Of a DNA stretch of 64,000 nt, positions 33,827-40,490 are shown piece after piece. How positions within the stretch are numbered: the first letter of the stretch is position 1; the number at the start of each line of letters is the position of its first letter. Below the pieces are notes generated by a model. The model was not told the DNA's origin and made no database searches. It saw nothing but the letters and a program-made list of their open reading frames with translations. The position numbers and the translations under genes are program-made. The DNA is from Candidatus Obscuribacterales bacterium (GTDB lineage Bacteria > Cyanobacteriota > Vampirovibrionia > Obscuribacterales > Obscuribacteraceae), in the NCBI GenBank assembly GCA_965228855.1, contig CBDDIJ010000005.1, positions 288,001 through 352,000 on the forward strand. Reading direction: 5' to 3'.

Positions 33827-34767
33827 TGAATGCGTCAGGTGCGACATCCGATCCGTCAAAGACTACCGCTGAGCTCTCCATCGCGTTCCAGGGAGCGCCT
33901 GGAGCCTACAGTCATGTCGCGGCTCGTATGTTTCTGGCGAAGAAGGGCAAGGAGCTGGGATTACCGACTGACCCCAAAAGTGCCGAAGAACTGTCGGTTG
34001 TTTTCGAGTCCTGCAAATCGTTTCAAGAAGTCTACGACAAGGTTCGCGATGGCGAATGCAAATTCGGAGTGATCCCCCTTGCGAATTCATCGATAGGTGC
34101 CATTACACCCGCCTGGGAGCTCATTCTTCAGTATCAGGTCTCATTCATCGCTGACGTCTACGTTCCGGTCCACCATCAGCTGCTCGGCCTTCCTGGGACC
34201 AATCCGAAAGACATCAGGGTTGTGCTATCACATCCGGTGGCGTTAAAGCAATGTATTCGTTTTTTAAACCAGATGCCGTGGGCGCAGAGTACGGGTTTCT
34301 GGGATACGAGCGGCGCCGCCTTTCATGTAAAAGAACAGAATGATCCATCGATCGTGGCAATCGCCGGTGAAGCTTCAGCAACCCTTACCGGATTAACTAT
34401 CCTCGCAAGAGATATCGAAGACTTTAAACACAATGAAACCAGATTCGGTATCATCGCGCCGGTGAATGTAGCCATGGATGCCGTCAGCAAAAACTTTCCA
34501 ACCCGGCCCCGACTGAGTTGTTGTGTAGAGCTTGATCCGGAGACCATCGAGTTTTCCACATTTGTAGCGTCGACGATCGGCAGGCACAACGCCAAGGTTT
34601 TATCAATAGTACCGCTGATGATTCCCGAACGCTCGTGGCAGTACCGATACGTTTTCGAGCTGGAGCTAGGCTCAAACCAACAAACTCAGAACATCTGGAC
34701 AGCAATTAGAGATAATGCGACGAAAGCTCGCATTCTCGGGGTCTACAGCTCTATTCGCATTACTTAA
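33826..34767 (+). CDS. pheA: Prephenate dehydratase (degenerate ACT domain)
   Basis: [38 protein letters not shown]. Confidence 0.88.
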
Positions 34768-38299: not shown

Positions 38300-39490
38300 T
38301 CATGCAACCACTCGTTTTGGCAGTGCATTTTCGACCTGAATTTGACGGCTGGCGTCCATGATTCGCTCGTATATGTTGCGAACCCGGGCGGCGACGCGCG
38401 GATCTGTGCATGCCAGACCAACCAGATCGAGAACCTCGCGTTCGCGAGCAACGTCACGCGAAGGCACCTTGAGCTCTTGCTTGAGCTCACCTGCACGCAT
38501 AGCGAGCATCAGACGCTCTTCCAGCAAAGCGGCAATGCTCGTGTCGGTTTTGTCAATTTCGCGACGAATATCTTTGAGTTCAGCGACCAAAGTTTCATAA
38601 CCCGTCAGTTTGTGCGACTCTTTGATCTCAGCTTGAGGCTCGTCCACGCCCTTAACTAGAGTCGGATTGCAAATGGTTCTTCCCACCGCCGCTGCAATTG
38701 GTTCGATGCTTCGAATGATTTCAATCATGTCATCCATGTGAATCGCCTGACGTGCGTCGGAAACAGACTTTTCCGGCTCAGGATGGCATTCGATCATCAA
38801 ACCATCAGCGCCGCACGCAATTGCCGCGCGAGCGAGGTCGGCGACCAGCTCTCGGCGTCCACAAGCGTGCGAAGGATCAACCAGAATCGGCAAGTGGGTC
38901 ATTTGCCGAAGGGCTACGACACCGCCGAGGTCAAGCACATTTCTCGTCGCATTATCGTAGCTTCTGATACCGCGCTCGCAAAGAATGACCTGATCGTTGC
39001 CGCCTGCGAGTATGTACTCAGCCGCGTTCACCAGTTCCTCCAGGGTTGCTGATAGCCCACGTTTGAGAATTACGGGCTTACGAAGCGTTCCGATGTGCTT
39101 CAAAAGTTCGAAGTTCTGCATGTTTCGGCTGCCGATCTGCAAAACATCGGCTGTGTGAACGGCGATATCAGCTTGCTTTTCGGACATTACTTCTGTGATA
39201 ACAGGCATACCGTACTTCTTCGAGGTGTCGGAAAGGATTTGCAGTCCTTCTTCTCCTAGTCCCTGGAAAGCGTAGGGCGAAGTGCGTGGCTTGTAGACAC
39301 CACCGCGCAGGGCGCTTACGCCTTGACCACGCAGCGCCGCGCCCACCTGGTCCATTTGCTCCTTCGACTCGACAGAGCACGGTCCGGCAACTATTAATAA
39401 GCTTCTTCCGCCACAGGTGACACCATCGGCGATCTCAACCACAGTGCGTTTTTGGGTTTCGGTAATGCTTGCTTTCAGATTCGTAGACAT
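38300..39490 (-). CDS. aroF: Type I-beta DAHP synthase fused to a C-terminal AroQ chorismate mutase
   Basis: AGPCSVES, KPRTSPYAFQG, QIGSRNMQNF, LKRG, CERGIR, DPSH; C-terminal IRREIDKTD...ER...K...RDVAREREV...SRQIQ. ATG 39490 after AAGGA. Confidence 0.93.
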   Translation of the reverse strand: MSTNLKASITETQKRTVVEIADGVTCGGRSLLIVAGPCSVESKEQMDQVGAALRGQGVSALRGGVYKPRTSPYAFQGLGEEGLQILSDTSKKYGMPVITEVMSEKQADIAVHTADVLQIGSRNMQNFELLKHIGTLRKPVILKRGLSATLEELVNAAEYILAGGNDQVILCERGIRSYDNATRNVLDLGGVVALRQMTHLPILVDPSHACGRRELVADLARAAIACGADGLMIECHPEPEKSVSDARQAIHMDDMIEIIRSIEPIAAAVGRTICNPTLVKGVDEPQAEIKESHKLTGYETLVAELKDIRREIDKTDTSIAALLEERLMLAMRAGELKQELKVPSRDVAREREVLDLVGLACTDPRVAARVRNIYERIMDASRQIQVENALPKRVVA

Positions 39491-39513
39491 TGTTTTGGTT
39501 CCTTGTGAGAGTG

Positions 39514-39548
39514 AAAAAAAAGACCGACTCCGTTGCCCCGGGTCGGTC
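39514..39548 (-). terminator. Intrinsic terminator of attenuator 2 (gene-proximal)
   Basis: Minus strand GACCGAC-CCG-GGGCAA-CGG-A-GTCGGTC followed by T8. Confidence 0.88.
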
Positions 39549-39576
39549 ATCTAGGTCGCGTCAACGCTTCCTGGAC

Positions 39577-39627
39577 TTACCGCCCGGGGACTCTAAACGC
39601 AAAAAACCAAAAACCTTTATTACTCAT
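39577..39627 (-). CDS. Phe/Trp-rich attenuator leader peptide 2
   Basis: AAGGA SD; MSNKGFWFFAFRVPGR*; lies directly upstream of terminator 2. Confidence 0.85.
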   Translation of the reverse strand: MSNKGFWFFAFRVPGR

Positions 39628-39653
39628 GACTCAATTCCTTTACTCGTGTTCTG

Positions 39654-39689
39654 AAACAAAAAGACCGCCTGCTTGTTTTGCATGCGGTC
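39654..39689 (-). terminator. Intrinsic terminator of attenuator 1 (promoter-proximal)
   Basis: Minus strand GACCGC-A-TGC-AAAACAA-GCA-G-GCGGTC followed by TTTTTGTTT. Confidence 0.8.
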
Positions 39690-39717
39690 CACCTCGGGTA
39701 ATCATCGTGAATCTAAC

Positions 39718-39777
39718 TCACCCCGGGTGAACCTCGCTAAACCAGAAAAATCCAAAATTGCGCATCGTTTTGCTCAT
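39718..39777 (-). CDS. Phe/Trp-rich attenuator leader peptide 1
   Basis: MSKTMRNFGFFWFSEVHPG* (alternative ATG at 39765); upstream of terminator 1; weak SD. Confidence 0.8.
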   Translation of the reverse strand: MSKTMRNFGFFWFSEVHPG

Positions 39778-39815
39778 ATTGGGGCAGCTCGTGCCCGTGC
39801 GTTTCGTATGGAGCA

Positions 39816-39845
39816 ATCCTATGCGAGGTAGGTAAGAGCCGTCAA
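39816..39845 (-). promoter_or_regulatory. Putative sigma70 promoter for the attenuated DAHP synthase-chorismate mutase transcript
   Basis: Minus strand TTGACG-N18-TAGGAT, about 40 nt upstream of leader 1. Confidence 0.55.
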
Positions 39846-40013
39846 GAGAAATTTGAAGACCTGTATACAATTCCGTAAGAATTCGCAAAAGCGATGTGCA
39901 GTTTAGTCGCAAAAGCAAACAGACCTGGGGGTTTCGGATGTGAAGAATCGCACCGGATCGGCAAATTCGTTCTATATAATAAGAAAGCGTCCCTTCTATT
40001 CATATAAACAGCA

Positions 40014-40490
40014 ATGAACATACTCCTGGCAATCGATGGTTCGACTTTCTCTCATGCCGCTGTGGATGAGGTTCTCAACCGTCCGTGGCAGAGTGACACT
40101 CGGTTCAAAGTGCTAACGGTCGTCGAACCATTCCATCCCGAATACGCAGGTTGGCATGGCAATTACGTGCCCGTCGCCATGGAAGCTCAAAAGGAATTGA
40201 TTGATTCGTCTCAATCTTTAGTGAATCAAATAGCCGCGCAGCTCGGAGAGCGCTTCGCGCCTGAGCAGATTGAGAGCGAGGTAAGAGAGGGTTATATAAA
40301 AGACGTGATCGTAGAGGTGGCCAAAGATTGGCATGCGGACTTGATCATAATGGGATCGCACGGTCGAAAAGGAATAACAAAGTTCTTGCTTGGTAGCGTT
40401 TCCGAAGGAGTGCTGTCAGAGGCACCATGTTCGGTCGAAATCGTCAAAATCAAGACGGAGCAAGAGAAACTCGCCGTTGGAAACGCCTGA
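40014..40490 (+). CDS. Universal stress protein
   Basis: ILLAIDGS, ADLIIMGSHGRKG, LLGSVSE, APCSVEIV. Confidence 0.92.
   Translation: MNILLAIDGSTFSHAAVDEVLNRPWQSDTRFKVLTVVEPFHPEYAGWHGNYVPVAMEAQKELIDSSQSLVNQIAAQLGERFAPEQIESEVREGYIKDVIVEVAKDWHADLIIMGSHGRKGITKFLLGSVSEGVLSEAPCSVEIVKIKTEQEKLAVGNA

Follow-up and report, generated by a model that had tools for sequence, protein, structure and literature searches.

Two leader-peptide units in series, probably ribosome-mediated attenuators, precede the DAHP synthase-chorismate mutase gene of an Obscuribacterales bacterium

In this 64,000-nucleotide stretch of a Candidatus Obscuribacterales genome (contig CBDDIJ010000005.1 of assembly GCA_965228855.1, positions 288,001 to 352,000; hereafter the window, with coordinates counted from its first letter), a gene for a fused 3-deoxy-D-arabino-heptulosonate 7-phosphate (DAHP) synthase-chorismate mutase is preceded on the minus strand by two short, Phe-rich open reading frames (ORFs), each followed by a hairpin and a T-run that resemble an intrinsic terminator. 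We consider it probable that these two leader-peptide units act in series as ribosome-mediated transcription attenuators of the gene. A preliminary description of the sequence had proposed two translation-coupled attenuators at this position, and the proposal gains support from the conservation of both units in relatives, from covariation in their helices, and from a paralogous gene whose leaders are coded with Tyr instead. From these comparisons, we infer that the leaders are translated, that transcription terminates at the U-tracts, that the units respond to Phe and Trp, and that their effects multiply.

The minus-strand order is promoter-like site, leader 1, terminator 1, leader 2, terminator 2, and DAHP synthase gene. 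All of these elements were found where the preliminary description had placed them, and the 355 bases located 5' of the gene start at 39490 contain all of the leader elements. The features are as follows.

39845-39816, minus strand: promoter-like site from a sequence scan (TTGACG at 39845-39840, 18-base spacer, TAGGAT at 39821-39816)
39765-39718, minus strand: leader 1, MRNFGFFWFSEVHPG, 15 codons with 4 Phe, 1 Trp and no Tyr; stop codon TGA at 39720-39718
39777, minus strand: first in-frame ATG, which would add MSKT to leader 1 and give MSKTMRNFGFFWFSEVHPG
39733-39686, minus strand: antiterminator 1, in which GGTTCACCCGGGG (39733-39721) pairs with CCCGAGGTGGACC (39698-39686), with a small inner hairpin between the arms
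39690-39654, minus strand: terminator 1, GGACCGC.TGC / GCA.GCGGTC and then T5GT3 (TTTTTGTTT); -15.6 kcal/mol
39640-39636, minus strand: Shine-Dalgarno-like AAGGA of leader 2
39627-39577, minus strand: leader 2, MSNKGFWFFAFRVPGR, with 4 Phe, 1 Trp and no Tyr; stop codon TAA
39591-39536, minus strand: antiterminator 2, in which the leader 2 end GTCCCCGGGCGGT (39591-39579) pairs with ACCGACCCGGGGC (39547-39535 region)
39548-39514, minus strand: terminator 2, GACCGACCCG / CGG.GTCGGTC and then T8; -18.4 kcal/mol
38300-39490, minus strand: DAHP synthase-chorismate mutase gene, ATG at 39490, 396 amino acids; AAGGAA 8 bases before the ATG

The codon count of the preliminary description (four Phe codons, one Trp codon, and no Tyr codon per leader) was confirmed in the sequence, with the aromatic codons of each leader falling inside 6 to 7 codons. 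Its choice of the first ATG as the start of leader 1 was not upheld. In the closest relative (locus L002, whose protein is 99.7% identical), a one-base insertion puts this ATG out of frame, and in all other relatives leader 1 begins at the ATG that corresponds to the second one here. Given the frameshift and the starts in the relatives, leader 1 most likely starts at the second ATG, which gives the 15-codon MRNFGFFWFSEVHPG. Its last four sense codons constitute the 5' arm of antiterminator 1 (GGTTCACCCGGGG), and GGACC (39690-39686) is common to this helix and terminator 1; the pairing of antiterminator 2 spans the entire 5' arm of terminator 2.

The 396-amino-acid product combines Pfam DAHP_synth_1 (PF00793, 5.9e-77; the type I family) with a C-terminal CM_2 domain (PF01817, 1.7e-14), and orthologs of this fused enzyme within the genus are 82 to 100% identical. 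Since the 5' neighbor of the gene, a universal stress protein (Usp) family gene at 40014-40490 on the plus strand, is divergent from it, the hairpins are not terminators of another gene. A fold-based scan of the genome listed both terminators; a simple terminator scan detected neither, because their loops are larger than its 3- to 8-base limit. Rfam 15, including its families Phe_leader and Trp_leader, gave no match in 39300-40100 at E values up to 10, and the leaders of six related loci likewise remained unmatched (E values up to 1).

A pattern scan of named genomes returned at least 119 stretches, 80 of which were fetched as loci. These came from photosynthetic cyanobacteria, including Trichodesmium, Calothrix, Coleofasciculus, Leptolyngbyaceae, Moorena, Microseira, and Spirulina, and from records of Melainabacteria/Obscuribacterales, the non-photosynthetic sister lineage of the photosynthetic cyanobacteria.

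To describe the first unit (module 1), 18 copies from relatives were aligned (alignment A1), the window's own copy being among them, and a model covering the terminator helix only (R1) was built from this alignment. In the 8.2-Mb genome to which the window belongs, R1 had only three matches, namely, module 1 itself (101.7 bits, a score that holds by construction because the window is one of the 18 sequences behind R1), the leader of the paralog described below (47.2 bits), and the second unit of the window, module 2 (26.1 bits). R1 also matched in 100 further places that are independent of the window, and a larger alignment (A3) was made from 102 R1 hits from 100 sources, comprising 99 distinct sequences.

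Antiterminator 1, which lies outside the R1 model, was 93.4% paired in the 18 sequences of A1 and 93.3% paired in the 99 distinct sequences of A3, where controls with a slid partner reached at most 53.3%. Seven of its 11 pairs showed compensatory changes in A3 (65 compensatory cells, compared to 21.3 ± 3.5 in shuffles; 0/500 shuffles were as high), and one pair read UA 42 times, GC 24 times, and AU 11 times. Terminator 1 was 88.4% paired in A1, with compensatory changes in 4 of 11 pairs, and 91.4% paired in A3, with compensatory changes in 7 of 11 pairs; none of 500 shuffles was as high, and the slid controls did not exceed 54.8%.

The coding signal of module 1 was assessed in 98 distinct copies. 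The codon positions -3 to -7 before a conserved Glu-Val were aromatic in 87 to 96 of them, with both synonymous codons in use (TTT 253 and TTC 24; TAT 105 and TAC 88). The stop codon fell exactly 4 codons after the Val codon, inside the antiterminator arm, in 97 of the 98 copies, and an in-frame ATG was present in 87. The 5' arm of antiterminator 1 is made of the conserved codons of this 'EVH' end, and a change of His to Arg (CAC to CGC) retains the pair as G-U; judged from such changes, the 'EVH' end is constrained at the RNA level. The window's module 1 has the form '...aromatic block-x-E-V-H-x-x-stop' together with the GGTTCAC / GTGAACC helix, followed by the DAHP synthase gene.

At most loci, the interval from terminator 1 to the gene is long enough to accommodate a second unit and does contain one. 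Of 92 loci evaluated for module 2, an automatic rule assigned a second aromatic ORF with a T-run to 68 and a second aromatic ORF lacking a T4 run to 14. The 10 loci without a second aromatic ORF included truncated loci, two chance matches, two Pseudanabaenaceae loci, and one locus with a second copy of module 1. Two loci (L012 and L013) failed the regular expression, and in both a second module is visible by eye.

The module 2 alignment (A2) contained 62 sequences after the removal of six rows (one in the wrong frame and five duplicate loci), and its pairing figures are lower bounds because the 5' arm is displaced in the seven rows that belong to the window's clade. Read in this way, antiterminator 2 was at least 84.9% paired, with 28 compensatory cells (12.3 ± 2.8 in shuffles), and terminator 2 was at least 81.0% paired, with compensatory changes in 9 of 10 pairs. 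For both helices, 0/500 shuffles reached the paired percentage, the number of compensatory cells, or the covariation score; for antiterminator 2, the count of pairs changed on both sides was as high in 63/500 shuffles. An alignment-free test, in which the RNA was folded up to the start of the terminator 3' arm and the partner region was taken as -28 to +12 around the leader stop, paired at least 6 bases of the terminator 2 5' arm with the leader end in 60 of the 62 sequences, versus 444 of 1240 shuffles.

Within the window's clade, individual compensatory changes can be read directly, with CCCCGGG / CCCGGGG (L001) versus CCCCGAG / CTCGGGG (L007 to L009), a change from G-C to A-U, and GACCGAC / GTCGGTC versus GACCGGC / GCCGGTC. 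The N-terminal part of leader 2 ranges from 16 to 48 codons in relatives, with the frame and the aromatic block retained. The preliminary description had claimed that the 3' end of each leader can pair with the 5' arm of its own terminator, and it had named the conservation of the short ORFs and covariation of the stems in relatives as a check. Both pairings are conserved and covary, and conservation and covariation were seen for both modules.

The similarity of the two modules had also been taken as a sign of duplication, a suggestion that did not hold in its simple form. Module 2 matched R1 weakly (26.1 bits with an E value of 0.04 for the window; 26.8 bits for the module 2 of a Trichodesmium relative), and a recent duplication of module 1 into module 2 was rejected, as the two are distinct conserved types in both lineages. 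On these alignments, module 2 is a second, distinct conserved type, with an antiterminator that fully overlaps its terminator, and, with matches of 26.1 and 26.8 bits, the modules may have an ancient common origin. In one Melainabacteria genus, two loci (L017, from genome G008, and L055) carry a copy of module 1 rather than module 2 in the second position; at L017, positions ~1154-1434 contain MSSRRFYFWYFCEVHLG and then MNTCKSGFYFWYIKEVHLG. The tandem state was therefore rebuilt by duplication at least once.

It seems to us barely credible that the features described are no more than U-rich codons and GC-rich hairpins falling together by chance between genes. Among the fetched loci there were 76 downstream ORFs, and 34 of the 36 tested were Pfam DAHP_synth_1; the two others (L039 and L104) had no leader-like peptide, which fits the ~2 chance pattern matches estimated. 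Runs of TTT and TGG are easily found in U-rich leaders, and the promoter scan taken alone is not significant (a single match in 39200-40200, at 39845-39816, with a shuffle mean of 0.7), although a TTGAC / TAnnAT pair of similar spacing and place was read by eye in the upstream sequences of relatives. Chance would nevertheless have to account for a 101.7-bit R1 match in a genome of 8.2 Mb whose only three matches are the two modules and the paralog's leader, and for covariation in all four helices. By its recurrence in many genomes, the two-module layout before DAHP synthase genes is more than chance.

The preliminary description had also called for folds of the terminator and antiterminator states, and the expected alternation was obtained for module 2 but not for module 1, whose terminator persists at equilibrium. 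As free RNA, the window's module 2 folds as the terminator, and placing a ribosome on the stop codon leaves this structure intact (-19.1 kcal/mol). A ribosome stalled at Phe-8 yields a minimum-energy fold that consists of the antiterminator only (-34.4 kcal/mol), with the terminator absent, and one at Phe-11 covers the arm and restores the terminator. In these models, the folding of module 2 is the behavior expected of a classical attenuator. The nascent antiterminator 1 reached -24.3 kcal/mol.

The switch that we propose would work as follows. When charged Phe and Trp tRNAs are plentiful, the ribosome would reach the leader stop codon, which sits at the 3' edge of the antiterminator 5' arm, so that the ribosome would mask this arm, the terminator would form, and the transcript would end at the U-tract. 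If charged tRNA ran short, the ribosome would stall on the aromatic block, 4 to 11 codons before the stop, leaving the arm free to capture the 5' arm of the terminator, and polymerase would read on. Because both checkpoints would have to be passed, read-through would approximate the product of two probabilities, and the series arrangement would give low basal expression and a steeper response.

Several observations weigh against this proposal. Its weakest point, as far as the folding models go, is a kinetic requirement for module 1, whose equilibrium folds keep the terminator beside a shortened antiterminator at any ribosome placement (-30.2 and -28.0 kcal/mol with the ribosome on Phe-7 and Phe-9, respectively, with the terminator present). 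Since the antiterminator and terminator overlap by just 4 to 5 bases and the equilibrium fold keeps the terminator, module 1 could switch only kinetically, with the antiterminator holding the bottom 4 to 5 base pairs of the terminator stem during polymerase's brief stay on the U-tract. This small overlap is itself conserved (5 alignment columns). No recognizable Shine-Dalgarno sequence precedes leader 1. A search for RNA runs containing the stretch gave none; the one run labeled RNA-Seq covers the leader with two short contigs, is probably DNA, and is uninformative about expression. Some relatives (L170 from G113, L172 from G074, and the Pseudanabaenaceae loci L050 and L064) carry module 1 only, and the second module is therefore dispensable. 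The shuffles behind the covariation figures of all four helices leave the relatedness among the sequences in place; for the module 1 helices, real pairing is favored by the slid controls and by the different pair types seen at individual positions. Because each leader has one Trp codon, Trp sensing appears less certain than Phe sensing. Lastly, codon content alone is no proof of the sensed amino acid, given that the aroR leader of Corynebacterium glutamicum has Tyr codons and that Tyr supply has no effect there, according to the accessible part of PMC11802643.

The folds would suit an arrangement in which just one of the modules, most likely module 2, works as an attenuator, with module 1 being a partial terminator that acts constitutively, a pause site, or a relic whose hairpins have lost the ability to switch. 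Terminator 1, with its overlap of 4 to 5 bases, persists at every ribosome placement, module 2 flips cleanly, and loci with one module exist; yet the one-module loci are ones that retain module 1, not module 2, and L017 and L055 fill their second position with another copy of module 1. Module 1 is also more widely conserved than module 2, its antiterminator covaries, its stop codon is fixed inside the arm in 97/98 copies, and its aromatic block is retained. On balance, a single working module strikes us as unlikely, and two attenuators in series remain our preferred reading of the leader.

The codon content of the leaders was next compared between paralogs. The genome of the window (G000) has a second leader-linked DAHP synthase gene (C3:412789-413577), which is unfused and has a separate chorismate mutase-like ORF downstream. 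Its leader region (contig C3, ~413578-413935, minus strand, outside the window) has the two-module layout, with MTRKYYYYHNDEVHQM and a terminator followed by MSQQRTYYYYQSRTLRGSPR and a terminator, and both leaders have Tyr runs with no Phe or Trp in the block. The same division holds in four genomes of the genus (G000, G004, G005, and G006), where, in both modules, the chorismate mutase-fused gene has Phe/Trp leaders and the unfused paralog has Tyr leaders. The exceptions are one Tyr in leader 2 of the fused gene of G005 and one Phe in each of the Tyr leaders of G004 (beside the run in leader 1 and near the N terminus in leader 2). G132 has one Phe-only set and one Tyr/Trp set, G023 has one mixed set and one Tyr set, and single-copy genomes have mixed Phe/Tyr/Trp leaders. 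Since codon identity tracks the isozyme, which would otherwise be hard to explain, the codons appear to be sensed, and since both modules of one gene always share their specificity, the tandem design would repeat one signal rather than combine two. A third DAHP synthase paralog of G000 (C5:382318-383034, minus strand, outside the window) is 55% identical and has an N-terminal extension; no leader was found in the upstream sequence examined, and this enzyme is possibly under allosteric control instead.

The paralogs also bear on whether the small aromatic peptides encoded by the short frames could be functional in their own right, or whether the frames could work by way of translational coupling or mRNA stability, rather than sense charged tRNA to control termination. 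A wholesale swap of Phe/Trp for Tyr between paralogs of the first enzyme of the pathway fits a sensor and not a peptide with a fixed target. The frames themselves are conserved, and so, it seems, are the residues at their C-terminal ends (EVH.G; P/S-G); at the codons for these residues, however, conservation extends to the nucleotides, third positions included, and changes there are matched by changes in the pairing partners. The N-terminal length and sequence vary freely. Each frame is, moreover, followed by a hairpin and U-tract that lie well upstream of the gene's ribosome-binding site. We regard a peptide function or an effect of this kind as very improbable and continue to favor sensing of charged tRNA by leaders of both specificities.

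The named records in which the same leaders occur with the closest enzymes bear the titles Candidatus Obscuribacterales, Obscuribacteraceae, or Melainabacteria. Of 151 genomes of the class searched with R1 (G000 included), 21 matched, all of them in the window's family (20 of the 30 sampled family genomes plus G000). R1 matched 0/120 genomes from ten other families of the class, a result that does not by itself show absence of the device; several have no close DAHP synthase.

A FastTree phylogeny of 94 DAHP synthase cores, which is unrooted and has local support values only, contains a well-supported branch that separates the leader-linked Obscuribacteraceae and cyanobacterial enzymes (85 rows, support 99) from the enzymes of other families of the class. 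The majority of the cyanobacterial rows group together (46 rows, support 98), and the chorismate mutase-fused clade of the window (8 rows, support 100) branches near the base. The tree fits descent from a common ancestor or an old transfer and does not fit a recent transfer. The complete device was also seen in three metagenome bins titled Proteobacteria, Bryobacterales, and Actinomycetota (L044, L079, and L113, respectively). Their enzymes fall among Melainabacteria or cyanobacterial rows of the tree, L079 being identical to a locus from a relative of the window's genome, and mislabeling during binning or naming is a more probable explanation than transfer.

Other candidate attenuators were sought in G000 by asking whether a short frame with an amino acid run lies near any of its 4376 terminator-like hairpins. 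Most of the top matches were Lys, Glu, Pro, or Gly runs without a cognate gene and look like chance. Six downstream genes were chosen and tested, and five of them were cognate to the run (loci L153 to L157, contigs C3 and C2). Together with a candidate Trp leader that lies, with its terminator, immediately upstream of the genome's sole trpE-like (Chorismate_bind) gene, they are as follows.

HGHHHHHH run (H6): candidate leader before hisG
NNNNN run: candidate leader before the aspartate-tRNA(Asn) ligase gene
TETTTT run (T4): candidate leader before thrS
MSMAMQM run: candidate leader before a cystathionine gamma-synthase-family gene
LLGLLLL run: candidate leader before a 2-isopropylmalate synthase-like gene
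G000 contig C3, ~2451360-2451515, plus strand: candidate Trp leader MMTTNTANAQNWWTWCNLVDEPRWRW (WW.W...W.W) and terminator

The sixth gene tested, a patatin-like gene behind a W-rich frame, was not cognate. Based on these candidates, leader-peptide attenuation looks general in the window's genome. A gene with a prephenate dehydratase domain lies in the window at ~33880-34458 on the plus strand, ~5 kb from the DAHP synthase gene, and closely trails another ORF. No aromatic leader was found before either of the two prephenate dehydratase (pheA-like) genes of the genome that were examined, and no terminator was found at the one at 33880-34458.

These observations can be joined into a wider account, in which an ancient two-checkpoint sensor predates the split between cyanobacteria and Obscuribacterales, was reprogrammed codon by codon in the large Obscuribacterales genomes (Phe/Trp for the chorismate mutase-fused isozyme and Tyr alone for the other), and works as an ultrasensitive, low-leak switch in a phylum where attenuation is general. 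We find the evidence for and against this whole account evenly balanced.

Attenuation by leader peptides is textbook knowledge, with most known cases in Proteobacteria, Actinobacteria, and some Firmicutes. For cyanobacteria, a survey from 2016 states, in its accessible part, that there are no reliable data on attenuation (PMC4833913). Our searches of the open full-text literature, whose coverage stops short of subscription journals and supplements, returned no report of the present device or of later cyanobacterial attenuation. Both agree with the preliminary description, which knew of no account of the arrangement, nor of leader-peptide attenuation in this lineage.

Several known or predicted systems share parts of the design; they are compared here on the basis of the accessible parts of the papers cited. 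The aroR-aroF leader of C. glutamicum provides leader-peptide attenuation of a DAHP synthase operon (Neshat et al. 2014, summarized in PMC11802643). As in the window, a short frame with aromatic codons (Phe-Tyr-Phe in aroR) precedes the operon, and Phe limitation stalls ribosomes and raises transcription (PMC11802643). Unlike the window's leader, to which it has no sequence relation, aroR is a single leader from the Actinobacteria (PMC11802643), whereas the window has two complete modules with 4 Phe and 1 Trp each, in a different phylum and with Tyr-only leaders at a paralog. The enterobacterial pheL-pheA and trpL-trpEDCBA systems share with the window regulatory codons, a terminator, and an alternative pairing that depends on ribosome position (PMC11802643). 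In contrast to pheL and trpL, the antiterminator 5' arm in the window is formed by the leader's last sense codons, no separate region 1 is evident, and the target is the first common step of the pathway rather than a terminal branch.

Tandem attenuators have been described in the Salmonella mgtCBR leader, which contains mgtM and mgtP (Lee and Groisman 2012, PMC3641672). There, too, two short frames in one leader RNA each govern alternative stem-loops and transcription into the coding region, but mgtM and mgtP answer to separate signals (ATP and proline), and their effects are additive (PMC3641672). The window's modules instead have the same codon set, each with an intrinsic terminator and U-tract of its own, and are predicted to read the same signal in series. 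The Acholeplasma uORFC-13-1 motif upstream of aroF, reported from 24 representatives, likewise has a predicted Phe-codon leader frame beside an intrinsic terminator, again ahead of a DAHP synthase gene (Brewer et al. 2021, PMC8632094). It differs from the window in being a single module from another phylum, and both cases are predictions.

The loci of photosynthetic cyanobacteria have the same two module types and the same DAHP synthase family as the window. Their leaders are mixed Phe/Tyr/Trp and their enzyme is unfused, whereas in the window the enzyme is fused to chorismate mutase and the codon content is split between paralogs. The predicted control in Melainabacteria and the Phe/Trp versus Tyr split between paralogs appear to be new; the logic of leader-peptide attenuation is known.

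If our reading is correct, the Cyanobacteriota, including their non-photosynthetic branch, would gate entry into the shikimate pathway by ribosome sensing. Two attenuators for the same signal in series would be a conserved design, which would make the sharpening of a response by serial checkpoints testable. Rewriting the codon content would give isozyme-specific control, and the Phe/Trp and Tyr paralogs in one genome would be a natural experiment. In Escherichia coli, AroG, AroF, and AroH divide the labor at the protein level; the Phe/Trp versus Tyr isozyme split would be the RNA-level counterpart of this division. The leaders may also serve as compact, portable parts for the engineering of aromatic compounds in cyanobacteria. 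Given the His, Leu, Thr, Met, Asn, and Trp candidates, leader-peptide attenuation would be in general regulatory use across a phylum that was believed to lack it.

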